Shown one piece after another: positions 870 through 40,955 of a stretch of 64,000 bases of DNA. The notes beneath the pieces are model-generated. The model was not told the origin of the DNA and did no database searches. It saw only the letters and a program-made list of their open reading frames with translations. Positions within the stretch are counted from its first letter, which is position 1, and each line of letters starts with the position of its first letter. The translations under genes and the position numbers were made by a program. Source of the stretch: Terracidiphilus sp. GTDB taxonomy: Bacteria > Acidobacteriota > Terriglobia > Terriglobales > Acidobacteriaceae. The DNA is taken from NCBI GenBank assembly GCA_049511595.1, contig JBEKXX010000001.1:676-64675 (forward strand), written 5' to 3'.

Positions 870-2405
870 TTAGAACGGGTTGAGCTTTCCGAGGCCCTTC
901 TTCTTTTTCTTTTTGCTGGAGGACTCGTCGCTCAGGTCGGTCTTGGGTTTCTTTTGCTTTTGATTCTCAGCGGTGGCGGGCTGAGCCGGGTTCGTGCCGG
1001 GCTTAATGTCGTTGATCTGGAGGGGCGCCTCGGCGGGTTTTTCCGCGACCGGCAGAGCCGTGTTGACGGGGCCGACCGGCTTTACTAGAGCGTTGGGATC
1101 TGCCTGCGCGGCGCCGCCGGGGGTTTGGCCGGCGCTGGCGGGGGCCTGAGCCGTAGTATTCGGCGCACTCACCACTTCGACACCGACGCCGGTGCCTTCA
1201 GCGGGAGCCTGCATTTGCAACGGGGCCGTAGAGGGTTGATCGCTGCGCGGCGGCTCGTTGGGACCGGTGGGGGTGACGGCAGCGGCCGGCGCCGGCGGCT
1301 TGCCGGCGTTTACAGCCTCCAGTAACATGGTCCTGTTTTCCTGAGAAACCTGGGGAGCAAGCGTACGCGTGGGATCTTCGAGAGTGGGCTCGCCGACATG
1401 TACGGCCTCAACCACGGTGGGGCCGCGCTTGATGATATCGAGCGTCTTGTCAGTAAAGTGCAGGGGCTGGCGGCTGCGCTCTTCGGCGTCGCTTTCGGCG
1501 ATGGCAGCGCTGGTGGGCTCGGGGACGGGGCGGTTCATGGCGACGAGGCGGTCACGGGCATCTTCAACGTGGGCTGCCATGGGATAGCGCACGATCACCT
1601 TGTCGTAGGCCGCAGCGGCCTTGTCTTCGTACATGGCGCGGAGACGCTCTTTGATTGCGCCGGGCAGGCCGCGAACAATACTAACGCTGTGCGCCTGGCC
1701 TGCATAAGCGTCGCCGATGCCGATCAGCACCTGGTCGCTCTTGGAGTAGAGGGGATAGGAATCGGCCACGGTTTGCAGGCGGGCGATGGCGGCGGGATAA
1801 TCTTCGCGGCTCTCGTAGTAACTGCCGATCTGGAACTCGCGCTCGGCCAAAACCTCCTGCACGTCGCGCAGCTTCTGCTTGGCGCGCGGAACGAGGCTCG
1901 AATCCGGGAACATGTTGATCATCTCCCGGTATTCCTTCTCGGCTTGCTGGACGTTGGTGAAGTCGCGATCGGGCTTCTCCATCTGCTGGTAGTAGATGTC
2001 AGCCACCTTCATCTTGGCTTCGGCAGCCTCGGGCGCGTTGGGGAAGAAGGTGATGAAGTCCTCGTACTCGGCCTCGGCCTGGGTGAGAGCCGCGGAGCCG
2101 CCCTCCTTGAACCAGGTGTCGCCGACCGAGAGCTTGGCTCTCATGCGGTATTCCGACTCGGGATAGGTGTTGAGCAGGGTCTGCAAGTCGAGGCGGGCCA
2201 CGTCGTAGCGGCCTTTCTTCATGGCCACCATGGCTTTGTCGTAGAGTTCCTTGTCGGGCTGCTTGGACTGCACGCCGGCCAGCGGGTTGGCGTTCAGATC
2301 GTAGGCCTTCTTTGGCTTCTTCTTGGTTCTGGCATCTGCCGAAACCCCACCCAGAAACAACACGGCAAGTGCGACAGCGACGATCTTGAGAGACAACCGA
2401 TTCAT
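870..2405 (-). CDS. bamD: Outer membrane protein assembly factor BamD with long Pro/Ala-rich C-terminal tail
   Basis: BamD-type TPR motifs (LYDKAM..., LQTLLNTYPESEY, YEDFITFFP, LAEREFQIGSYY); start placed at MNRLSLK (2405), where a signal peptide begins. Confidence 0.85.
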   Translation of the reverse strand: MNRLSLKIVAVALAVLFLGGVSADARTKKKPKKAYDLNANPLAGVQSKQPDKELYDKAMVAMKKGRYDVARLDLQTLLNTYPESEYRMRAKLSVGDTWFKEGGSAALTQAEAEYEDFITFFPNAPEAAEAKMKVADIYYQQMEKPDRDFTNVQQAEKEYREMINMFPDSSLVPRAKQKLRDVQEVLAEREFQIGSYYESREDYPAAIARLQTVADSYPLYSKSDQVLIGIGDAYAGQAHSVSIVRGLPGAIKERLRAMYEDKAAAAYDKVIVRYPMAAHVEDARDRLVAMNRPVPEPTSAAIAESDAEERSRQPLHFTDKTLDIIKRGPTVVEAVHVGEPTLEDPTRTLAPQVSQENRTMLLEAVNAGKPPAPAAAVTPTGPNEPPRSDQPSTAPLQMQAPAEGTGVGVEVVSAPNTTAQAPASAGQTPGGAAQADPNALVKPVGPVNTALPVAEKPAEAPLQINDIKPGTNPAQPATAENQKQKKPKTDLSDESSSKKKKKKGLGKLNPF

Positions 2406-2463
2406 ACCACCTCGTTGGAGGAGAGCCCTGAGGGTGGGCTGCCCACTGCATGACATACGCTTT

Positions 2464-3174
2464 TCAGTGAATTTTACTCTTTCCGCCCGCTACCTGGCTG
2501 ACCATGATCCGATCGGCGGCCTCACGAGCCGCGGCCAGCAGGGCGCGCGCATCGCGCTCCGGCTGCCCGGCGCCGAAAACAGCACTGCCCGCGACGAACA
2601 GATCCGCACCCGCTTGGACGATTGGCGCTACCGTGTCGTGAGCCACGCCGCCGTCCACCTCGATTTTAAATGCCAAGCCGAGCTCTTGCCGGATTTCCGC
2701 CAGGCGGCGGATCTTTTCGAGCGAGAAGGGGATAAACTCCTGCCCGGCGAAGCCGGGATTGACGCTCATGACGAGCACGTGATGGACCATGGGGAGGATG
2801 TCCAAAATGAGTTCGACGCGCGTGGCGGGGTTGAGAACCACGCCGGGCTTCATGCCGTGATGAAGGATCATCTGGAGCGAGCGGTGCAGGTGGGGGCAGG
2901 TCTCGTAGTGGACGCTGAGCCAGTTGGCTCCCGCTTCGGCAAAGGCGGCGATGAAATCGTTGGGGTTATCGATCATCAGGTGGCAGTCGAGGGGCAGGCG
3001 TGTGGCCTTGCGCACGCTGGCAACCACGGGCGGGCCGAGGGTCAAGTTGGGGACGAAGTGGCCGTCCATGACATCGACGTGGATGGCCGTGCCGCCGCCG
3101 CGTTCGGCTGCGGCAATCTGATCGGCCAGGTGGGCAAAATCCGCGGAGAGGATGGAGGGCAGCAGCTCAACCAT
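2464..3174 (-). CDS. rpe: Ribulose-phosphate 3-epimerase
   Basis: PSILSADF, HVDVMDGHFVPN, DCHLMI, VMSVNPGF, IEVDGG, FVAGSAVF motifs. Confidence 0.97.
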   Translation of the reverse strand: MVELLPSILSADFAHLADQIAAAERGGGTAIHVDVMDGHFVPNLTLGPPVVASVRKATRLPLDCHLMIDNPNDFIAAFAEAGANWLSVHYETCPHLHRSLQMILHHGMKPGVVLNPATRVELILDILPMVHHVLVMSVNPGFAGQEFIPFSLEKIRRLAEIRQELGLAFKIEVDGGVAHDTVAPIVQAGADLFVAGSAVFGAGQPERDARALLAAAREAADRIMVSQVAGGKSKIH

Positions 3175-3244
3175 GGGATTCGTGTGGAACTCCTTGCGGG
3201 GACAGTGTATCAGCGGGAGCGGGGGTTTGTGGCGGTTGAAGCCG

Positions 3245-4648
3245 CTAAGAAATGGAAGACTTCAACTTCTCGGCTGCCACACGGCCGATACCGCGCAGGA
3301 TGGCTTTGATGGGCCAGCGGTTATCGGCGTCGGGGAAGAAGATTTCGCCCGTGCGGCGGGCTTCGGGGCGGTAGTACCAGCGCTTGAGCAGAGCGAGATG
3401 GGCCTGGCGAACGGTTGCGGAGGGCGTGGCGGTGTCCTGCGCCAGCAAGGCGAGTGCGGCTTCGAGGCGGGATTCGAGAACGCCGCGAGCGAGCTTTGCG
3501 GGCGCGATGTTTCCCCCAGGGGCTAAAGCCCCATCATCTATGGGGCCGCTTTCGGCACGACTGAAGCCGTGCCCTTTCAAGACTTCTTCCGATTGGTCTG
3601 TATTGATTTCGTTTCCCTGTTCCCTACGTCCTGTTCCCTGCTCTCTGTTCTCAGAACTCTGTTCACTGTTCTCTGGGGCTTCCGGAATCGGTTCGATGGC
3701 CATGGGCTGGGCGAAGAGCGAAGTCGAAGTGGTGTTTTCGTTCTGGATTCTCATGCCGAGAGTGGAGAAGGCGGCGGGGCCGCGCAGACGGCCACTTTCA
3801 AAGAGAAAGACGGCTACTTCGCCGGGGTTGGCGGAGGCCTGCAGAATGACGGCGCGCAGGCGGCTCAGGGGGCGAACGAGTTCGGCGGCGAGGGCGCTCA
3901 CGGCTTCGACGCGCTGCGCTTGAGCGTGGAGCGCAGCGGCGGATTCGAATTCGAGATTTGCCGAGGCTTGGTCGCGCTGGGTGCGGAGGGCTACAAGGCG
4001 GCTTTCGCCACGCGTGGAGAGAAAGCTCTCGACGGCTACGGATTCTTCGGCGTAGCGCTCGTCCGAGCAGCCCTTGTAGCAGGGGGCGAGACACATCTTC
4101 ATCTCGGAGTAGACACAGCCGGGATAGCTGGGGTCGGGCGCGAGCTCGAAGGTGCAGCGGCGCAGGAGAAAGAGCTTGAGCATTTCTTCGGCGTAGCGCT
4201 CGGCCGCGGCGCGCGAGGGAAACGGCCCGTAGGCCCAATCGGCTTGGCGCAGGCTGGGACGGTAGGTGACGGTGAGGCGCGGGTAGGGATTGCTGCCGAG
4301 AAAGCGCACAAACGCCGGGTGGCGCAGGTGCATGCGTTCAAGGCACTTCGTGCCGTATACCTTTTGGACGAGTTCAAACTGAATCAGCAGCGACTCGAAT
4401 TCGGAGCCGGTGATGCGCCATGCGATGCGGCGAACCAAGCCGGCGAGATGCAGGCGGCGCGGATGGCGGGGCGAGGGCTGGAGCAGGCGGTCAAGTCTGG
4501 AACGGAGGTTGGGCGTGCGGCCGATGTAGGGTTCGGCGCGAGAGTCTGCTCCGTAGAGCGCGAAGACGGCGGGCGATGACGGCAGTTGGGCGAGCGCGGC
4601 TTTGGGGTTGGCCGGATCGAAGGATACGCTTTGGAAGTCATTCGGCAC
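3245..4648 (-). CDS. UvrC N-terminal-like (Cho-like) GIY-YIG nuclease with UVR domain
   Basis: VFALY...PYIGRT.NLRSRL GIY-YIG; LRRC...CVYSEMKMCLAPC cysteine cluster; UVR motif ASANLEFESAAALH; no RNaseH or HhH half of UvrC seen. Confidence 0.75.
   Translation of the reverse strand: MPNDFQSVSFDPANPKAALAQLPSSPAVFALYGADSRAEPYIGRTPNLRSRLDRLLQPSPRHPRRLHLAGLVRRIAWRITGSEFESLLIQFELVQKVYGTKCLERMHLRHPAFVRFLGSNPYPRLTVTYRPSLRQADWAYGPFPSRAAAERYAEEMLKLFLLRRCTFELAPDPSYPGCVYSEMKMCLAPCYKGCSDERYAEESVAVESFLSTRGESRLVALRTQRDQASANLEFESAAALHAQAQRVEAVSALAAELVRPLSRLRAVILQASANPGEVAVFLFESGRLRGPAAFSTLGMRIQNENTTSTSLFAQPMAIEPIPEAPENSEQSSENREQGTGRREQGNEINTDQSEEVLKGHGFSRAESGPIDDGALAPGGNIAPAKLARGVLESRLEAALALLAQDTATPSATVRQAHLALLKRWYYRPEARRTGEIFFPDADNRWPIKAILRGIGRVAAEKLKSSIS
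3519..3573. repeat. REP-like double palindrome inside the uvrC-like CDS
   Basis: GGGGCTAAAGCCCC (3519-3532) and GGCACGACTGAAGCCGTGCC (3554-3573); translated in frame as LKGHGFSRA...GALAP. Confidence 0.75.
3615..3675. repeat. Degenerate heptamer tandem array (T-C-C/T-C-T-G-T type) inside the uvrC-like CDS
   Basis: About 9 units such as TCCCTGT, TCCCTAC, GTCCTGT, TCCCTGC, TCTCTGT, ACTCTGT, TCACTGT; encodes ENSEQSSENREQGTGRREQG. Confidence 0.7.
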
Positions 4649-7079: not shown

Positions 7080-8249
7080 ATGAGCAGAACCATGAAGATC
7101 AATTTCTTTGCCGATCGCATCGGCGGCTGGCGTTTATTGGCGTTGAGCGCGGTTTTGCTGGTGTGCCGGCCTGCCTCGATGTACGGCGCGCAGGATGCGC
7201 AGGCGGGGCCGGCGCCGTTGCGTGTGGCGATTGTGGGCCTGGAACACGGGCATGTGGAGGCGTTTCTGCGGGCGCTGCCACAACACAAAGACGTCACTCT
7301 GGTAGCGGTTGTGGATGCTGACCAGGCGCTGGCAGAGAAGTACCAGAAGAAATTCAACCTGCCGCCGAGCCTGTTCTACCCGAGCCTGGAAGCGATGATC
7401 CCGGCGCAGCATCCGCAGGCGCTGCTGGTGTACGCGCCCATCGCGCAGCACCGCGGCGTGATCGAGAAGGCGGCGCAGTATGGCGTCTCAGTGATGGTGG
7501 AGAAGCCGCTGACCATCTCGCTCGAGGATGCGCTGGCGATTCGCAAGGCCGCGCGCGAGCACCACATACATGTGCTGGTGAATTACGAGACGACGTGGTA
7601 CGCGAGCAACCGCGCCGCCTACGACGCCGTGGAGCAGGGGCAACTGGGCGCGATCCGGCGCGTGGTGGCGCACGATGGCCACCAGGGTCCCGTGGAGATT
7701 CACACGCCGCCTGAATTTCTTCGCTGGCTGACCGACCCGGCGCAGAACGGAGCCGGCGCGCTCTACGATTTCGGCTGCTACGGCGTGGATCTGATGACAT
7801 GGCTGATGCACGGAGAGACGCCTCTGACGGTGACGGCCGTGACGAACCACGACAAGCCTGAGATGTATCCGCGCGTGGATGACGACGCGACGATCGTGCT
7901 GACTTATCCCCGCGCGCAGGCGGTGATTCAGGCTTCGTGGAACTGGCCGTTCAACCGCAAGGATATGGAAGTGTGTGGCGCGACGGGTTACGCGATCACG
8001 GTGGGCGCGGACCAGGTGCGCGTGCGTCACGAGCACGACGCGGCGGAGCAACTGATCACGGCGCCGCCGCTGAACGCGCCCGAGGATAATTCACTCGATT
8101 ACCTGGCTGCCGTGTTGAACGGACAGATCGAGTCGAAGGGCGACCTGAGCGCGCTGGACACGAATGTGGTGGTGATGCAGATTCTTGATGCCGCGCGCGA
8201 GTCCGTGCGGACGGGAAAGACTATTAAACTGGCCAAGCTGCCGGAATAA
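7080..8249 (+). CDS. Gfo/Idh/MocA oxidoreductase with N-terminal signal peptide
   Basis: VAIVGLEHGH Rossmann fold, VMVEKPL, GAGALYDFGCYG. Confidence 0.9.
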   Translation: MSRTMKINFFADRIGGWRLLALSAVLLVCRPASMYGAQDAQAGPAPLRVAIVGLEHGHVEAFLRALPQHKDVTLVAVVDADQALAEKYQKKFNLPPSLFYPSLEAMIPAQHPQALLVYAPIAQHRGVIEKAAQYGVSVMVEKPLTISLEDALAIRKAAREHHIHVLVNYETTWYASNRAAYDAVEQGQLGAIRRVVAHDGHQGPVEIHTPPEFLRWLTDPAQNGAGALYDFGCYGVDLMTWLMHGETPLTVTAVTNHDKPEMYPRVDDDATIVLTYPRAQAVIQASWNWPFNRKDMEVCGATGYAITVGADQVRVRHEHDAAEQLITAPPLNAPEDNSLDYLAAVLNGQIESKGDLSALDTNVVVMQILDAARESVRTGKTIKLAKLPE

Positions 8250-8289
8250 AGCAGCCTGACCGGATTGACGCCGGGTGATGTTTCAGCCG

Positions 8290-9525
8290 TCACCGCGTGG
8301 TTTGCTGCGCGAAGAGCGTGAGGTCGATGGCTTCGCCCATGGCTTTATAGCCTGCGTCTTTGGGGTGCAGGTGATCGCCTGAGTCGTAGGCCGGGTTGAA
8401 GCGATTGGGATCCTGCGGATCGCGCGTGGCTTTGTCGAAGTCGGCGACGCCGTCGAACGTGCCGCTATTGCGAATCCAGTCGTTGACGGCTTCGCGGATC
8501 TGCTCGCCCTTGCCGGAGTAGTAGAACGCGCCGCCGTAGGGCGTAAGCGTAGCGCCGATGGCTTTGATGCCGTGCTCGTGCGCGGCATCGGCAATCTGTT
8601 TGAGGGCCATCTCCAACTGCTGCGCGTCGATCTCATCGTACGGAGCCCGGGGCCGCTCGAGGCTGCCGATGTCGTTGATGCTTTCGAGCACGATGACGTA
8701 GCGCACGCCGCTCTGCGCAAGCACGTCGCGGTCAAGGCGCGCGAGGGCGCTGGGTCCGTAGTCTTCGTTGAGGACGCGGTTGCCGCCGATGCCTTCATTC
8801 AGGACGGCGACGTTTTTGAGATTCGGATCTTCGTGGAGGCGTGCGGCGAGAACGTCGGGCCAGCGGCGATTGGCGTTGGGAGTAGAAAGCGAGCCGTCGG
8901 TGATGGAGTCGCCGAGCGCGACAATGGCGCGGGAACCGGCGACGGCGGAGACATCGATGCCGTCGAGGAAGTACCACGAAGAGAATTTTGTGGCGCCGGG
9001 CAGATCCTGCGCGGTGGAGACATCGCCGTCGGCGAGGAAGTTGTCCTGGTCGGCGAAGTCGTGAAAGGTTTCGGCGCGCATGACTTGCGGCGGCAGATAG
9101 AAACTGACGGCGAGATCGGAGAGCGGAGGAACGGCGAGGGCGACGGGATCGGAGAAGAGCTCGGCTCCGGGCGGGATATTGACGGAGGTTGCTCCGCCGA
9201 AGGTGACGGCGTGATCGATGCCGGGCTGGATGGCTCCGTTGCCGGCGCTGAGCGCCACGTGAGCATCGGCGATGGTCAGCGGATCGGCGCCGTAGGCGTT
9301 GGTGAAGCGCACGCGAAGTTGCGGGCCGCCGACGGAGACGTGGACGATTTCACGCAGCGTGACGCCGCTGAGGGGGCGTAGGTTGAAGCCACGCTCGACC
9401 AGCAGGGGAGCCGCGGCCCACGTGCCTACCCATTGCGGATGAGGTACGGACTGGGCGCTGGACGGCGCTGGGAGAACGAGCACCAGAGCGGCGCAGGCAG
9501 CTAATGAAAGGCAGTGTTTCCCCAT
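8290..9525 (-). CDS. Secreted SGNH/GDSL hydrolase
   Basis: ALGDSITDG, NEGIGGNR, LESIND, DHLHP blocks; RBS GGAGAGG before MGKHCL (9525). Confidence 0.92.
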   Translation of the reverse strand: MGKHCLSLAACAALVLVLPAPSSAQSVPHPQWVGTWAAAPLLVERGFNLRPLSGVTLREIVHVSVGGPQLRVRFTNAYGADPLTIADAHVALSAGNGAIQPGIDHAVTFGGATSVNIPPGAELFSDPVALAVPPLSDLAVSFYLPPQVMRAETFHDFADQDNFLADGDVSTAQDLPGATKFSSWYFLDGIDVSAVAGSRAIVALGDSITDGSLSTPNANRRWPDVLAARLHEDPNLKNVAVLNEGIGGNRVLNEDYGPSALARLDRDVLAQSGVRYVIVLESINDIGSLERPRAPYDEIDAQQLEMALKQIADAAHEHGIKAIGATLTPYGGAFYYSGKGEQIREAVNDWIRNSGTFDGVADFDKATRDPQDPNRFNPAYDSGDHLHPKDAGYKAMGEAIDLTLFAQQTTR

Positions 9526-35164: not shown

Positions 35165-37693
35165 CTATTGTTGCAGGATCGGTTCGAGCTGGTGAAGAGC
35201 AGCGGTCATGCCGGCGCGGTCGCCGTTCTGGACGGCGGTGAAGAGCGCGATCCAGGAGGCGCGGCCGTTGCTGAAGGCGGGTGAGGCTGAAAGGATTTGA
35301 AGCGACCCGGTAAAATCCCAAACCGCCGCCTCCAGCATTACAGACTTCGACAGGAGCACTTTTTCCGTTTGCCGCGCCGCGTTTTTGTCTCCCGCGCCCC
35401 ACTGGCAGGCGAACTCGATGGTGTCTCGCACCACGGCCTGCGGCGCGGATAAGGAGTCGTCGGTGAGGACTGCCACGCGCTGAATACACGCGGAGTAGCG
35501 TGCGGCCATAAAACTGACTTCCATAATGTTCATTTGCGTTTCGGCCCAATCCTCGGGCAGATCGGCTTTGGTGTCCACCTCAAGCGCACTTTGATAAGCC
35601 TGGACGGCCTGGTCGAACAAAACCCTGGCTTGGTCCCCTCCGGTATGCAACGCCTCGCTTGCCAGCGCGTCGCCCAGATCGAGCTGCGCCGTCGCCCAGT
35701 ATTGCGGCAGATCGGCTTTGGTGAAGACCTCAAGCGACTTTTCAAACGCCTGCACGGATTGAGCGAGGAGGGGGCCTGCTTTATCCCCGCTGGCGCGCAG
35801 CCCCTCCTGCATCCATGTCAAACCGAGATTGATTTGCGCTCTCCCCCAGTCCTGAGGCAGATCGGCCTTGGTGTAAACTTCCAGCGCGCTTTGATAGGCC
35901 TGCGCCGCCCGATCGAAGAGGGCGGGGGCGTTTTCGTCGCTGGCGCGAATTGCCTCATCCTCGAGCGCGCTTCCCAGGTTGTTCTGGATCTGGGCCCAAG
36001 CCTGCGGAAGGCCGTCCCTGGTGATCACCTCAAGTGCGCTCTTGAAGGCTTGCACAGCCCGATCGAGCAGAGCGGCGTTGTTCGCCTGGCTGGATCTCAG
36101 GCCCTCGTCCATCAAGGCAAGGCCCAAAGCATCCTGGGTAATGGCCCAGCGCTGAGGGAGGTCAGCTTTGGTATCGACTTCAAGCGCGTTTCCGAAGGCC
36201 TGCACCGCAGCGTCAAGCAGAGCAACGGCCTTTGCGCCGACGGCGTGCTCGCTTTCCCGGGTCAGCGCAACTCCGAGGCTGAATTGGGTTCTGGCCCATT
36301 CCTGGGGCTGGTTGGCCCTGGTGGTGACCTCGAGCGCCTGATGAAAGGCCTGCACAGCCTGGTCGAATAGCGCAGTGGCCTTGTCGCCGCTGGCGCGCTG
36401 AGCCTGGTCCGCAAGCGCGTTTCCGAGATCGTTTTGCGTGGCGGCCCAGTCCTGGGGCTGATCGGCTCTGGTGCGTACGGCAAGCGCGTCCTGGTAAGCA
36501 TGGGCCGCTCGATCGTAGAGAGCCGCAGCCTTGTCACCGCTCACACGGGCCGCCTCATCGGCCAGTGCGCTGCCCAGACCGGCTTGCGCCGCTGCGCTCT
36601 CGCGGCGATCGCCCAACGCGGCATAGTCGCGCGCCAGCGACTCGAAATCCTCCACGGATTGAGCCAGCAGGCCTAGGCTCTGGCTGGCGGGCGAAACCTC
36701 GCCCTCAGCTTTGCGCGCAGCGCCCAGGTCAGAAACGGCTCGCAGCCACAACTCGTTAAAACCCCTATCGCCGGGATGCTTCCCGTGTTCGGCAGCAGCG
36801 GTGGCTGCGGCGGTTTCGAGGGTCTGCGTGGCGAGGCGATACTGCTCGGCGAGTTGCGAGGCGCTCGCGCTCTGCTCGCGGTCGTTGATCAACTGGCGCA
36901 GCTTGTCGCGGCGGGCGTTGAGAAAGGCTTGTTCTTCGGCGTCGAGTTCGTCCTTGTCGGCGGCGGCGGCCTCGTCAAATAACTGCGCGGCGCTGGCGTA
37001 GTGCTTGAGCGCAACCTCGGCCAAGGCCTTTTGCTCGGTGGTGGCCTGCGCCGGCTGACGCTGGATGTTCTGCGCCCATTGCTGCACCTGCTGGTTGACC
37101 TGGCCGGCGGAAAAACCATTCGCCTGGGCCCATTCGGCGATGGCGGCGCCAAGGTCGACCTTCTGGTTCTGCGCCTCGGCAACTTCGGCCTTCAGCGCCA
37201 GGTTTTGTTTCTTGAGGCTGTTGACCTGAAGCAACATGCGGTGCAGGGCCGCTTCGATCTGCGCCGGGCCGGTGAGCGCGAGCGAGCCTTTCGGCAGCAG
37301 GCTGACCTGGACGGTTGCGGGCAGCGCGGCAGCCTTTCCCTCGGCGGACCGGAAGTCGGGTAATTGGCCGTCGGCTGGCTCGTAGATGACCAGGCCGGTT
37401 GCGCCTGCGATCTCAATGCGCAGATTTCCACGCTGCGACGCGTCGGGCGAAACCAGCAGCAATGCCTCGCCCCCGGAGTTGGTGACCTGCTGCGCGTCGG
37501 TGATGGTCAATCCGCTATCGAGATAGCTGAGCGCGACACGGACGCCTTTGACCGGTTGGCGCGGTTGCGGCAGCACGTTGACCACCAGCACCATGACGTT
37601 CTGCTCCGGCGTGGGCTTTTGCGCGCCCGCGGAAGCGGCTACGCAGCCTATTCCCAGCAAAAGAAGAACTGCCTTGCCCAGCCTGTTCTTCAT
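35165..37693 (-). CDS. Secreted TPR-repeat protein (about seven 50-aa repeats)
   Basis: Signal peptide MKNRLGKAVLLLLGIGCVAASAGA; beta-rich N-domain; coiled coil; repeats W-A-x-T-Q-x-x-L-G-x-A-L...A-V-Q-A-F/Y-x-x-A-L-E-V-x-T-K-A-D-L-P with a 150-bp period. Confidence 0.85.
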   Translation of the reverse strand: MKNRLGKAVLLLLGIGCVAASAGAQKPTPEQNVMVLVVNVLPQPRQPVKGVRVALSYLDSGLTITDAQQVTNSGGEALLLVSPDASQRGNLRIEIAGATGLVIYEPADGQLPDFRSAEGKAAALPATVQVSLLPKGSLALTGPAQIEAALHRMLLQVNSLKKQNLALKAEVAEAQNQKVDLGAAIAEWAQANGFSAGQVNQQVQQWAQNIQRQPAQATTEQKALAEVALKHYASAAQLFDEAAAADKDELDAEEQAFLNARRDKLRQLINDREQSASASQLAEQYRLATQTLETAAATAAAEHGKHPGDRGFNELWLRAVSDLGAARKAEGEVSPASQSLGLLAQSVEDFESLARDYAALGDRRESAAAQAGLGSALADEAARVSGDKAAALYDRAAHAYQDALAVRTRADQPQDWAATQNDLGNALADQAQRASGDKATALFDQAVQAFHQALEVTTRANQPQEWARTQFSLGVALTRESEHAVGAKAVALLDAAVQAFGNALEVDTKADLPQRWAITQDALGLALMDEGLRSSQANNAALLDRAVQAFKSALEVITRDGLPQAWAQIQNNLGSALEDEAIRASDENAPALFDRAAQAYQSALEVYTKADLPQDWGRAQINLGLTWMQEGLRASGDKAGPLLAQSVQAFEKSLEVFTKADLPQYWATAQLDLGDALASEALHTGGDQARVLFDQAVQAYQSALEVDTKADLPEDWAETQMNIMEVSFMAARYSACIQRVAVLTDDSLSAPQAVVRDTIEFACQWGAGDKNAARQTEKVLLSKSVMLEAAVWDFTGSLQILSASPAFSNGRASWIALFTAVQNGDRAGMTAALHQLEPILQQ

Positions 37694-37775
37694 GGGAACC
37701 TCGCCTAAAACAATTGCTTGATTTTGCTTGCAGTGTAGCACCTCTTCCGGCCGGGAAATCCGATATGCCGATCTC

Positions 37776-37814
37776 TTTCGCGGTGCGCTAGAGGCTGGCA
37801 GGAGGACCGGGCGG
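37776..37814 (+). repeat. Direct-repeat copy of the rnpB promoter -10 region and 5' end
   Basis: TTTCGCGGTGCGCTAGAGGCTGGCAGGAGGACCGGGCGG is 35/39 identical to 39714-39752. Confidence 0.88.
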
Positions 37815-38042
37815 ATGGGCGTTGGGGGCGGGAGCGCTGAAGACAAGAAGGCTGGCGGCGAGGATGGCGGATGGGATTCCTGGCAAGTGGGGCATTTCGA
37901 TTGGATTCCTTTGCGATGCGGGGTTCCTGGCTTGCGGCTCTCGTGGCTCTTTATATCAAACCAATGTGGGCTTCGCCCCAGGGCGGATGCTTGCGATGTG
38001 GATGTTGGTTAAAATAGAGGCAGTTCAGGGAGAGAGGCGTCG

Positions 38043-38333
38043 ATGCGGCCTTCGGAGATACTGCCGCTGCACCGGGAGACCATTCGCCGGCTTGTGTCGC
38101 AAGCGGGAATGGCGAACCCGCGCGTATTCGGGAGCGTGGTGCGCGGCGAGGACACCGAAGACAGCGATCTGGACATTCTGGTGGACCCCGCCCCACGGAC
38201 GAGTTTGCTGGATCTCGCCGGCCTTCAGATTGATATTGCAGAGAAGACCGGAGCCAACGTTGACCTCCTGACTCCAAATTGTCTTCCAGTGAAGTTTCGG
38301 CAGAGGGTTCTGGACGAGGCCCAGCCGGTATGA
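38043..38333 (+). CDS. mntA: Minimal nucleotidyltransferase antitoxin (MntA-like)
   Basis: RVFGSVVRGEDTEDSDLDILVD (GS-x10-DxD), VDLLT. Confidence 0.9.
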   Translation: MRPSEILPLHRETIRRLVSQAGMANPRVFGSVVRGEDTEDSDLDILVDPAPRTSLLDLAGLQIDIAEKTGANVDLLTPNCLPVKFRQRVLDEAQPV

Positions 38334-38698
38334 GCCAGCATCCGGAGCGCGTCGGGGATTATCTCGAACACATACTCGCCGCCGTCGATCGCATTCAGCG
38401 ATATATCGCGGGCAAGTCTGTGGCCGACTTCATGGCCGACACGATTCTTCAGGATGCCGTGCTGCGGAACCTCGGTGTCGTTGGCGAAGCAGCACGCAAG
38501 CTAATTGCTGACTCTCCAGAGTACGCGGCACTGCATCCGGAGATTCCGCTGGCGAAGATCAATGCGACACGAAACCGGATTATCCATGCCTACGAAGAGG
38601 TTGATCTGGACATAATCTGGAATCTGCTTTTGTACGATGTCTCCGTTCTCCGGCCAAAGATCGTCGAGGCGCTGAATGCGATCAAGAGAGAGCAGTAG
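38330..38698 (+). CDS. hepT: HEPN/DUF86 ribonuclease toxin (HepT-like)
   Basis: YLEHIL, DAVLRNLGVVGEA, RNRIIHAY (R-x4-H plus the downstream Tyr); ATGA overlap with the MNT gene. Confidence 0.9.
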   Translation: MSQHPERVGDYLEHILAAVDRIQRYIAGKSVADFMADTILQDAVLRNLGVVGEAARKLIADSPEYAALHPEIPLAKINATRNRIIHAYEEVDLDIIWNLLLYDVSVLRPKIVEALNAIKREQ

Positions 38699-38741
38699 GC
38701 GAATAGTCTAGCGCGCGAAAAAGCGGGAAGAACGTAAGGTG

Positions 38742-39707
38742 ATGGAGATGGAAGATCAAGAGTTGCAACAAACTGGAACCCCGCCGAAGCCTGAGGGACT
38801 GCTCTATCATTACACGGATGAAAAAGGGCTCTATGGAATACTTGACAGTGGAGAGATATGGGCGACACACTATCGTTTCCTAAATGACCTGGCAGAGCAA
38901 AAAGAAGGCTCCGCCCTCCTATATTCATTTCTCGACGAAACAAATCTCGAATACACAAGACTATACCGAAACGAGATTAAGATGTTGTTCGACTATGACC
39001 TTACTCATATGCAACTGTTTGTAGCATCGTTCTCTGGGGATTCCGCAGATGCCGTCGGCGGAGACCGGCTAAGTCAATGGCGCGGGTACTCTCCAAATCG
39101 GACCGGTTTCAGTCTTGGATTTGACGGCAGCCTTTTGAGAGCCAAAGCTGAGAGCCTAATGGTCAAGACAGTGCTAGCGGTATTTCTGTGGCAATGCGTT
39201 TATTCAAAAGAGGGCAAGAATGAGATAGAGAGAAAAATCACGTCAGTTTTCGAGGAAAAGGTTGAGATGAATCTCAACGCTTTTTCCCAGAAATGGGCAC
39301 ATTTCAGTAGAGAAAATGTTGAGATGGGCCAGTTGAATCGAGAAAAAAGGAGGCAGGAGTTTCGTGAAATTGCGTTTTACCCGCTTCGTGACGAATTTCT
39401 AAGGTGGTGTGCAACCCTGAAGCATGAAGGATTTAATGAGGAGCGCGAGTGGAGGTTAGCTTGTTATGTCCACGAGGAGGTTACAGATTTGAAATTTGTC
39501 CAGCTCCGGGACAGGCAATATGGGCACACTCCCAACATTCAGGTCCCTCTCGGCTTATCTGATTCAGATTCCCCGTTGAAGCGGATTGTTGTGGGTCCGT
39601 CCCAAAATCATGAGCAAGCCGCTATCAGCTTAGGGATTGAACTCGCGAAGAGGGGTCTCAAGGGTGTTAAGGTCGTCCCCTCCCAAATCCCATACCGCAA
39701 CTGGTAA
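38742..39707 (+). CDS. DUF2971-domain protein, low GC
   Basis: LYHYT...LND..E, FVASFS...DRLSQWRGY, KHEGFNEEREWR; GC 27/60 and 23/60 at 38881-39000 versus 42/60 in xylB. Confidence 0.8.
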   Translation: MEMEDQELQQTGTPPKPEGLLYHYTDEKGLYGILDSGEIWATHYRFLNDLAEQKEGSALLYSFLDETNLEYTRLYRNEIKMLFDYDLTHMQLFVASFSGDSADAVGGDRLSQWRGYSPNRTGFSLGFDGSLLRAKAESLMVKTVLAVFLWQCVYSKEGKNEIERKITSVFEEKVEMNLNAFSQKWAHFSRENVEMGQLNREKRRQEFREIAFYPLRDEFLRWCATLKHEGFNEEREWRLACYVHEEVTDLKFVQLRDRQYGHTPNIQVPLGLSDSDSPLKRIVVGPSQNHEQAAISLGIELAKRGLKGVKVVPSQIPYRNW

Positions 39708-39730
39708 ATCCCATTTCGGGGTACACTAAA

Positions 39731-40259
39731 GGCTGGCAGGAGGACCGGGCGGTCGCTGCCGGAAGTCCTTGCGCGAGCGGGGGTTGCCGGGAGAGGAAAG
39801 TCCGAACTCCGCAGGGCAGTGTGCCGGATAACGTCCGGGACGTGAGCGTGAAGGCTCACGGACGGCCAGTGCCACAGAAAACATACCGCCTCGGCTACCC
39901 CTCTTCGGAGGGTCTCCGGAATGGCCCTACAGGTTCGCCTGGACGGCCAGTCCCGCCGGGGTAAGGGTGAAAAGGTGCGGTAAGAGCGCACCGCTCCGGC
40001 AGTAATGCCGGAGGCAGGGTAAACCCCACACGGAGCAAGACCAAATAGGGAGGGAAGCCGGGGCCAAGAGCCAGGCGCCGGCTGCGCATCGGCCCGATGC
40101 GGCAAGGCGGCTCCAAGCGGGGCCCCCGACGACAGGTTTTCGTCGTTGGGGTGTTCACGTGCCGGAACCTCCGGGTAGGTCGCTGACGAGCGCCCGCGGC
40201 AACGCGGCGCCTAGAGGAATGACCGCATAAACAGAATTCGGCTTACGAGTCCTTTTGCC
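39731..40259 (+). ncRNA. rnpB: RNase P RNA (type A, extended)
   Basis: GAGGAAAGTCC, AGTGCCACAGAAA, GGTGAAAAGGTGCGGTAAGAGCGCAC, GGTAAACCCC..GGAGCAA and AAACAGAATTCGGCTTAC; P1 pairs 39735-45 with 40249-59; TACACT -10 at 39722-27. Confidence 0.97.
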
Positions 40260-40310
40260 GAATGAAGACGGCTCCGATTGGCGGGTGATTGCCGTCAGGA
40301 GCAAGACGAC

Positions 40311-40520: not shown

Positions 40521-40955
40521 ATGTTGCGAGTGAAGCGATTGGAGGCGGAGGCGCAGCTGCCTGTGGTGGCGCATCCGGGCGAGGACCTGGGCTATGACCT
40601 GTTTGCGCTGGAGGCGGTGCGGCTGGCGCCCCGCGTCACGGTGAAAGTGAGAACGGGAATCGCCGTAGAAGCGCGCGACCCCGCCACTGGCGCGCCCTTG
40701 GGATTGCTGGTGCGCGACCGCTCGTCGATGGCGGCGCGGGGGATTGCCACTACGGGCGGCGTGATCGACGCAGGCTACCGCGGAGAAATCCTGGTGGTGA
40801 TGACCAACCTGGGCGATGCGGCCGTGGAGTTGAAGGCGGGCGAGAAGATCGCGCAGATGGTTCCGGTGCCTGTGCTCACCGGGCCGGTGGAAGAAGCCGA
40901 GGACCTGGAAGGCTCTTTGCGGGCTGCGAAAGGGTTTGGAAGCACAGGGAAATAG
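40521..40955 (+). CDS. dut: dUTP diphosphatase
   Basis: GYDL, VRTGI, RDRSSMA, GVIDAGYRGEI, GEKIAQ, KGFGSTG. Confidence 0.95.
   Translation: MLRVKRLEAEAQLPVVAHPGEDLGYDLFALEAVRLAPRVTVKVRTGIAVEARDPATGAPLGLLVRDRSSMAARGIATTGGVIDAGYRGEILVVMTNLGDAAVELKAGEKIAQMVPVPVLTGPVEEAEDLEGSLRAAKGFGSTGK

Follow-up and report, generated by a model that had tools for sequence, protein, structure and literature searches.

This study concerns rnpB, the gene of the RNase P RNA, and the small islet that precedes it in a 64,000-nucleotide stretch of DNA (the window) from contig JBEKXX010000001.1 of a Terracidiphilus genome (assembly GCA_049511595.1), where two copies of the rnpB promoter and 5′ end flank three genes. 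Comparison across the genus shows the stretch directly upstream of rnpB to be, by its predicted gene content, a genus-wide variable slot for small toxin–antitoxin (TA) and phage-defence cassettes. The repeat in the window is the scar of an old insertion, and we lean towards a turnover of the slot that proceeds mainly by recombination anchored on invariant rnpB sequence and would require no dedicated integrase.

The two copies in the window form a direct repeat of 39 nt (35 of 39 positions identical, i.e. 90%; start-to-start distance 1938 nt), which a repeat search recovered just as a preliminary description of this DNA had given it. All four mismatches lie within the first 16 nt and the final 23 nt are exact, this 23-mer occurring at only these two places in the 3.3-Mb assembly. 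When the rnpB 5′ block was aligned locally with the 5 kb upstream, it scored 58, compared with 19.1 ± 2.5 for shuffled queries (z = 15.9). The right copy begins 6 nt after the stop codon of a DUF2971 gene, which ends at 39707, again as described before; within it lie the box TACACT (39722–39727), which all examined genomes of the genus have at a constant spacing upstream of rnpB, and the initial 16 nt of the Rfam match, with P1 pairing able to start at 39735. This match extends over the full length of the RF00010 model (positions 1–367) and far exceeds the cut-off of 100 bits, so that rnpB is an intact gene of type A and the repeat indeed spans the −10 region and the rnpB 5′ end including the 5′ strand of P1. 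In the left copy the box reads TGCGCT (37784–37789), the decayed −10 element already noted in the preliminary description. The assignment as a −10 box is one from conservation alone, because a consensus promoter scan predicted no sigma-70-like site at either copy. Counted from GGCAGG in a profile of 59 rnpB 5′ regions, the left copy ends at position +18. Since it adjoins the chromosomal flank and matches the working rnpB promoters of other species (identity of up to 92.5%), its reading as the displaced resident promoter and 5′ end, with the right copy as the presumed working one, is supported. A third, more degenerate copy had been proposed at 37850–37875 as a sign of repeated use of the site. 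The similarity as such is real (37849–37875 align to the left copy with a score of 30, reached by none of 500 shuffles), but because the ATGGG that comes after the left junction has been copied as well, this segment is a local internal duplicate of the junction rather than a separate rnpB copy or a separate integration scar.

The age and fate of the islet emerge from comparison with relatives. Of 41 related genomes, 39 gave an RF00010 match, and as much as 8 kb of sequence preceding rnpB was examined in 23 species of the genus; in addition, 401 species of the genus were scanned for the exact 18-mer GGCAGGAGGACCGGGCGG (+1 to +18). Four genomes agree with the window in left flank, left copy and junction (GGGCGG, then ATGGGCGTTGG...), namely G020, G041, G172 and G319, the last three of which surfaced in the 18-mer scan with an identical left junction. 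Together with the window genome these represent five species, probably of Terracidiphilus (Acidobacteriaceae), and among the 401 genomes the left flank of the window adjoins rnpB only in this clade. In the nearest relative, G020, the left-flank protein is 96% and rnpB 92% identical and the left copy is the same; the HepT and DUF2971 proteins encoded between the copies are 41 and 33% identical, respectively. At the DNA level, the two are 94% identical over a stretch that comprises the left flank, the left copy and 166 nt at the start of the MNT gene. Beyond it, the sequences are unalignable until 67 nt before rnpB, where identity returns at 92%. All five species are 94–96% identical from the left flank to window position 38209; past this point, pairwise comparisons reveal nested breakpoints (at offsets 713, 818, approximately 1220 and 1340 of the extracted segments), and identity returns at or slightly before the right copy. 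Between these limits G041 carries MNT-HepT and an unknown protein of 387 residues, G319, on the other strand, a nucleotidyltransferase (PADLOC PDC-M70A) with an exonuclease, and G172 a different DUF2971 allele.

Because left flank, left copy and junction are common to all five species, these comparisons show that the insertion behind the repeat predates them. The islet is likewise an old relic because, besides being common to the five species, its old −10 box has lost the A at its second position, which is a G in all four clade members that keep the region (TGCGCT or TGCACT; the region is replaced in G172). In four of the five species, no base has changed in the 23 nt of the left copy that belong to the RNA. 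The breakpoints further show that the cargo of the clade has, by all appearances, since been swapped repeatedly by homologous recombination, with crossovers within the islet and at rnpB. What the preliminary description had said about the absence of an integrase is borne out for the open reading frames (ORFs) of the cargo, and of the two fates it had considered for the islet, relic or element mobilized in trans, the common possession by five species fits the former.

At the scale of the genus, roughly one sampled species in four (14 of 50, taken without regard to this feature) has a cassette of some type directly before rnpB. The cassettes in the slot include MNT-HepT-DUF2971, MNT-HepT alone, HicAB, the nucleotidyltransferase with exonuclease, the 387-residue protein and also DUF7689, and in other species the position is taken by ordinary genes (lipB, rsgA, doxX, pta or a gene for a beta-lactamase-fold protein). 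In 31 of the 401 species it is a DUF2971 gene whose stop codon lies at a fixed distance of 27–29 nt from GGCAGG. The DUF2971 alleles of the genus are only about 30% identical to each other, i.e. no closer than to homologues of other phyla, and homologues in Desulfobulbales, Rifleibacteria, Gammaproteobacteria and others adjoin neither rnpB nor MNT-HepT. Despite this low identity, the last codons of the gene (IPYRNW, stop) are fixed in the genus along with the distance to rnpB.

Same-strand, closely spaced duplicates of the rnpB start are present in six further genomes or loci beyond the five-species clade, with spacings of 1734 bp in G124 (around HepT and a broken DUF2971 gene), 984 bp in G264 (DUF7689 and an unknown gene), 767 bp in G213 (HicAB; exact repeat of 48 nt), 753 bp in G131 (HicAB), 515 bp in G155 (a HicB remnant) and 1.9 kb in L161 (an OmpA-family gene). 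In both G213 and G131 the HicAB genes lie on the strand opposite to the left copy. According to the profile of rnpB 5′ regions, the old copies, which stem from at least seven independent events, end at +18 (window clade), +26, +28, +31, +34, +39 and +57. Between the copies of each of the 11 repeats there is cargo of foreign appearance (TA, defence or other genes), and there are no empty tandems. In G155 and L161, the old copy immediately follows a DUF2971 gene with the canonical spacing, and therefore a newer cassette must have entered an rnpB that already had DUF2971 upstream. The left junctions of like cargo differ: MNT starts 228 nt after the copy in the window and about 50 nt after it in G124, and the distance from hicB to the copy is 47 nt in G213, 40 nt in G131 and 13 nt in G155. 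The duplicates are, however, the minority among islets at this site, about 90% of which are repeat-free: there is no second copy in approximately 27 of the 31 DUF2971-rnpB islets or in any other islet checked, and Smith–Waterman searches and nhmmer with the profile detected no decayed left copy in 26 further loci. Likewise, 12 genomes of the sister family, which have a different rnpB 5′ sequence, showed no duplicate within 1.5 kb upstream. Several apparent duplicates were rejected, i.e. those on separate contigs in G079, G175, G197 and G389 (two complete rnpB genes in mixed bins), those in G004 and G091 (contig breaks inside rnpB) and a chance match within coding sequence in G012. The comparison upstream of rnpB that the preliminary description had called for thus yielded an unoccupied and an occupied site from different species, with lipB on the minus strand, 57 nt and rnpB in G003, and lipB on the minus strand, 78 nt, copy, hicBA and copy-rnpB in G213, but neither an empty site for the flank of the window nor an integrase-bearing element.

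Variants of the promoter suggest which copy is the newcomer. The upstream element of the old copy is of the common TTCGCGG type in G264, G131 and G124, that of the new copy of an aACTGCG type. The latter is found at 12 of 24 cassette-bearing loci as opposed to 4 of 36 others (Fisher p = 0.002, with phylogeny ignored). That the new copies carry this cassette-linked element supports the view, also advanced in the preliminary description, that incoming DNA brings along the rnpB promoter now in use. Within the transcribed part, positions +1 to +26 are near-invariant across the genus and the P3 region after them is variable. On the upstream side, the limit of the repeats (−22 to −26) is just where interspecies conservation of the rnpB promoter stops, and an attP site is therefore not needed to account for their outer edge.

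For the window, these data can be assembled into the following scenario. In the common ancestor of the five species, a piece of DNA would have entered that comprised a defence module (MNT-HepT and one more gene) and, along with it, an rnpB promoter and 5′ end of its own, and its join to the resident rnpB would have fallen about 18 nt into the RNA. What preceded this point, i.e. the promoter and the first 18 nt of the resident gene, would have stayed behind as the left copy, the −10 box of which later lost its key A, and the incoming copy would now drive rnpB. More generally, the invariant rnpB sequence (+1 to +26) may serve as the right-hand homology anchor, whereas the left crossover could occur wherever homology exists, e.g. 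inside MNT or HepT, which would generate mosaics. Occasionally, the left join would be non-homologous or use very short homology within the first approximately 60 nt of the resident rnpB, leaving a stump and thereby a direct repeat. By a survivorship argument, which we infer, recombination with the gene would remove stumps of greater length and leave the short ones. We favour such anchored recombination because the only exchange of cargo open to direct observation proceeds by homologous recombination.

A central question is whether the start of rnpB is instead an attachment site, as the preliminary description had proposed. Its recurrent use stands, with seven junction types, but an integrase-type site is not the best-supported mechanism. 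In one version, possible though in our view not probable, the block from −25 to +30 would be the attB of a recombinase acting in trans (a helper tyrosine or serine integrase or a host Xer-type enzyme), and the cassettes would be integrase-less mobilizable islets with an attP copy of the block, which restores gene and promoter on entry. More specifically, that the promoter and first 30 or so nt of rnpB are a true attachment site for integrase-less defence cassettes, moved by a recombinase encoded elsewhere, strikes us as rather unlikely. A number of observations nevertheless speak for a site of this kind or otherwise weigh against anchored recombination. A single short region is used repeatedly and gives rise to repeats of 40–60 bp, and an attachment site would equally account for seven junctions that all fall in the initial 57 nt of a gene of some 500 nt. 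Mismatches between copies are restricted to the promoter half (all four in the window, and likewise in G264 and L161), which is the classical signature of an attP × attB exchange. The tandem order of DUF2971, copy, new cargo and copy-rnpB in G155 and L161 resembles att-site arrays, and the pairing of one promoter variant in the old copy with the cassette-linked variant in the new one (G264, G131 and G124) would also fit. Integrases specific for dusA provide a precedent for targeting of a 5′ end with restoration of the gene (PMC4482086). Moreover, neither the 401 genomes of the genus nor JGI metagenome contigs contain an empty site with the window's own left flank; the 18-mer scan is blind to stumps shorter than +18; the perfect 48-nt repeat of G213 includes species-variable promoter positions, and therefore points to a very close donor or to duplication in situ; and the organisms are uncultured, anchored recombination being something that we infer from their genomes. 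On the other side, Pfam reveals no recombinase among the cargo ORFs of any of the 11 repeat-bounded islets. No integrase was seen among the ORFs annotated in 31 loci that reach as far as 8 kb upstream, and none lies at or close to rnpB in G213, G264, G124, G155 and G131, where all PF00589 matches are far from the gene. The window genome has only three Xer-like recombinases, all on other contigs and scoring 93–122 bits against an integron-integrase cut-off of 265. The exact 18-mer has two matches in IMG/VR, each inside an unrelated coding sequence that has no rnpB in its vicinity. Like cassettes differ in their left ends, the length of the stumps ranges from +18 to +57, and most islets at the site have no second copy at all. 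Finally, the block is not dif-like. A hairpin or palindrome hot spot was also considered, as a nested dyad can be seen by eye at +1 to +26, and rejected: the DNA fold of −5.1 kcal/mol is no better than that of shuffled sequences (z = −0.13). In terms of known classes, the islets share with integrase elements a duplicated target next to an intact gene, and lack their recombinase gene and conserved ends. As to integron cassettes, none of the Xer-like proteins of the window genome reaches the grade of an IntI, and the repeats are rnpB sequence rather than attC. With respect to transposons, the window islet contains no transposase and no inverted repeats at its ends, and the duplicated length varies between islets.

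Three further explanations bear on how the left copy itself came about. It could be the stump of an old in-situ duplication of rnpB by unequal crossing-over or slippage, between the parts of which cargo landed by chance. The identity of the G213 copies over 48 nt, species-variable positions included, and the internal junction duplicate of the window, which shows that local duplication does occur, would be in line with this; we nevertheless regard it as quite improbable, as the profile finds nothing rnpB-like past +18 after the left copy and cmscan no partial RNase P RNA at E ≤ 1, the seven stumps all end between +18 and +57 rather than at random points of the gene, the copies in G264, G131 and G124 differ by clustered promoter substitutions and not by scattered decay, and all 11 repeats bracket cargo with not a single empty tandem. 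Alternatively, the left copy might have been kept for a function, either as promoter or leader of MNT-HepT-DUF2971 or as a decoy RNA that pairs with the 3′ strand of P1 or titrates the RNase P protein. Its position 229 nt upstream of the operon in the same orientation and the unchanged 23-nt RNA part in four of five species may suggest as much, yet a divergence of about 5% predicts only about one change in 23 nt anyway. The conserved −10 A has been lost in the four clade members that keep the region, which G172 has replaced altogether, no sigma-70-like promoter is predicted, HicAB of G213 and G131 faces away on the opposite strand, and most islets do without any copy, all of which makes a function very hard to credit. 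Least credible of all is that the pair merely reflects chance similarity or an assembly artefact: the window genome is indeed a metagenome-assembled genome (MAG) in 200 contigs, and several MAG contigs of the genus break at the rnpB 5′ end, but the alignment score is far outside the shuffled range, the assemblies of four other species have the same architecture, and an independent JGI metagenome contig of 2341 nt, which covers both copies, is 100% identical to window positions 37704–40044. The artefact that the preliminary description had named as a possible refutation has therefore not materialized. Overall, recombination anchored on rnpB, i.e. the process for which the five-species clade provides observable exchanges, is the reading that we lean towards.

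Should an attachment site be involved after all, a conserved Xer-like gene pair would be a candidate mover. In every genome of the genus examined in this respect, an XerD-like and an XerC-like tyrosine recombinase gene are adjacent and overlap (window genome, positions 1096–3158 of the extracted locus; also G213, G264, G124, G131 and G155). Xer genes are usually not neighbours.

The features of the window islet and its surroundings are summarized in table 1. MNT, HepT and DUF2971 genes are co-oriented between the two copies and form one apparent operon, a predicted small defence and TA module with no recombinase among its ORFs by Pfam. The start codon of HepT overlaps the stop codon of MNT (ATGA at 38330–38333), and both signature motifs can be read in the translations, i.e. 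GS...DxD (as GS...DLD) in MNT and Rx4H (as RNRIIH) in HepT; by adjacency, overlap and motifs the pair thus classifies as a predicted type VII TA system. The G-rich leader of 228 nt that precedes it is confined to the clade, blastn matches being found only in G020, G041, G172 and G319. Within it, at 37858–37940, two copies of the motif GG(A/G)TTCCTGGC..G.GG were seen by eye, which could be operator sites for the MNT-HepT pair. The DUF2971 gene has a G + C content of 44–50%, as opposed to approximately 62–65% in the flanks, and no terminator is predicted in the window between it and rnpB. Its product gives no sequence match to any solved structure, shows a weak Tox-ART-HYD1 match at its N-terminus and, in an alignment of six homologues, the invariant residues H24-Y25-T26, S112-Q-W-R115 and E235/E237. 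Its PF11185 match together with H-Y-(E) and ExE motifs identifies it as a predicted ADP-ribosyltransferase of the Aristaios family. DUF2971 proteins have been predicted to be ADP-ribosyltransferases akin to DarT and AbiGi (PMC12522546), and Aristaios, a DUF2971 protein of 316 residues, was found by experiment as an antiphage system (PMC11381338). The window protein and this single-gene system, which resides on lactococcal plasmids (PMC11381338), are alike in being DUF2971 proteins of similar length (322 and 316 residues) with predicted ADP-ribosyltransferase motifs; they differ in that the former follows MNT-HepT in an apparent operon, and their kinship is at the level of the Pfam family only.

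Table 1. Features of the rnpB islet and its flanks in the window (E-values and scores as obtained with the method given).
Feature	Position	Strand	Evidence
Left flanking gene, 842 residues, no Pfam match, chromosomal	35165–37693	−	protein 96% identical in G020
Left copy: presumed former rnpB promoter and first ~18–22 nt of RNA, displaced	37776–37814	+	repeat search, alignment, profile
Left end of islet: G-rich leader, 228 nt, with partial junction duplicate at 37849–37875	37815–38042	+	blastn, shuffles
MNT-type nucleotidyltransferase, predicted antitoxin, 96 residues	38043–38333	+	PF01909 (1.1e-8), PF18765; PADLOC PDC-S09 (8e-28)
HepT (HEPN RNase), predicted toxin	38330–38698	+	PF01934 (2.2e-21)
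DUF2971 protein, 322 residues, predicted ADP-ribosyltransferase	38739–39707	+	PF11185 (6.8e-11)
Right copy: presumed working rnpB promoter and P1/P2 5′ strand	39714–39752	+	repeat, conservation, Rfam
rnpB (type A RNase P RNA; insertions of large size)	39737–40261	+	RF00010, 236.1 bits, E = 1.6e-75
dut (dUTPase), right neighbour of rnpB	40521–40955	+	PF00692 (2.4e-23); synteny

With respect to the anchor gene, rnpB of the window is 525 nt long as compared with the 367 positions of the model, insertions of about 78 nt in the P15–P17 region and about 50 nt in P12 being among those present; across the order its length ranges from 395 to 580 nt. The dut gene follows rnpB in the same orientation in most of the genus, whereas in G001, G006 and G007 it is upstream and divergent, and rnpB or its neighbourhood must therefore be inverted relative to dut in these genomes. 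Elsewhere in the genus the slot holds further genes of potential interest. The pair seen in G319 (positions 1717–3364 of the locus) is also present in G002 and on the opposite strand as well; its nucleotidyltransferase has 354 residues (PADLOC PDC-M70A, 4e-27) and its DEDDh-type exonuclease 221 residues (PADLOC 'Effector', 1.5e-37), and together they represent a candidate two-gene defence system. The 387-residue protein, which has neither a Pfam nor a PADLOC match, replaces DUF2971 behind MNT-HepT in G041 (1444–2607 of the locus) and in G381, the two versions being 73–79% identical. In locus L131 from a Terracidiphilus MAG, an IS1595-family transposase (7739–8641), the only transposase seen in any slot locus, splits the DUF2971 gene, and a HicAB pair is situated between DUF2971 and rnpB. 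About 930 nt upstream of the left copy of G213, there is an element of about 50 nt that occurs dozens of times per genome in G009, G014, G018 and others (85–98% identity), and in this dispersed distribution is like a repetitive extragenic palindromic (REP) sequence or a miniature inverted-repeat transposable element (MITE).

Integration sites and defence hot spots are usually found at the 3′ ends of tRNA or tmRNA genes or between protein-coding core genes, and our full-text search of the literature found no report of the 5′ end of rnpB as an insertion site. Defence-island hot spots between core genes are fixed slots that hold different small defence or TA systems in each strain or species. The slot upstream of rnpB resembles these in its divergent alleles and conserved flanks; in contrast to them, it is anchored on its right by the start of an essential ribozyme gene (promoter and 5′ end), which some events have duplicated. 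Homology-facilitated illegitimate recombination during natural transformation, as it operates in Acinetobacter and Streptococcus pneumoniae, offers a parallel in mechanism, in that one end is anchored by conserved sequence, the other joins without homology or at microhomology and unrelated genes are gained. It is not known from Acidobacteria, however, nor is it known for joins that cluster within the initial 57 nt of the anchor gene, as they do here. Among described systems, tRNA/tmRNA islands and dusA elements come closest, and both have integrases of their own. Islands at tRNA or tmRNA 3′ ends (Islander/TIGER-type) share with the rnpB islets a structural-RNA landmark, partial-gene repeats, tandem arrays and TA or defence cargo, whereas the latter use the 5′ end, include the promoter in the repeat, have no recombinase that we could find and undergo replacement by homologous recombination, which is documented here. 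Elements at the 5′ end of dusA are alike in entering at the 5′ end of a conserved gene, in their short target repeat and in restoring the 5′ end, but possess a tyrosine integrase of their own next to the target, a size of 20–150 kb and defined ends (Farrugia et al. 2015; PMC4482086); islets of the window type have no integrase, a cargo of 0.5–2.5 kb, variable left ends and an RNA gene with its promoter as target.

Overall, our data indicate that, throughout a large genus of soil Acidobacteria, a variable slot for defence and TA genes is anchored on the promoter-proximal end of rnpB, an essential gene. In some events, the promoter of the ribozyme appears to have been exchanged together with the start of the RNA itself, and horizontal gene flow would thus be tied to the expression signals of an essential gene. 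For the Acidobacteriaceae, the position upstream of rnpB also provides a handle for finding defence candidates, such as the DUF2971 alleles, the 387-residue protein, DUF7689 and the nucleotidyltransferase with exonuclease. If a recombinase is responsible, the start of rnpB would constitute a new class of attachment site, with cassettes that dock on the gene of an essential ribozyme and replace its promoter at each insertion. If there is none, the slot would be a clean natural case of cassette gain anchored on a single conserved sequence.

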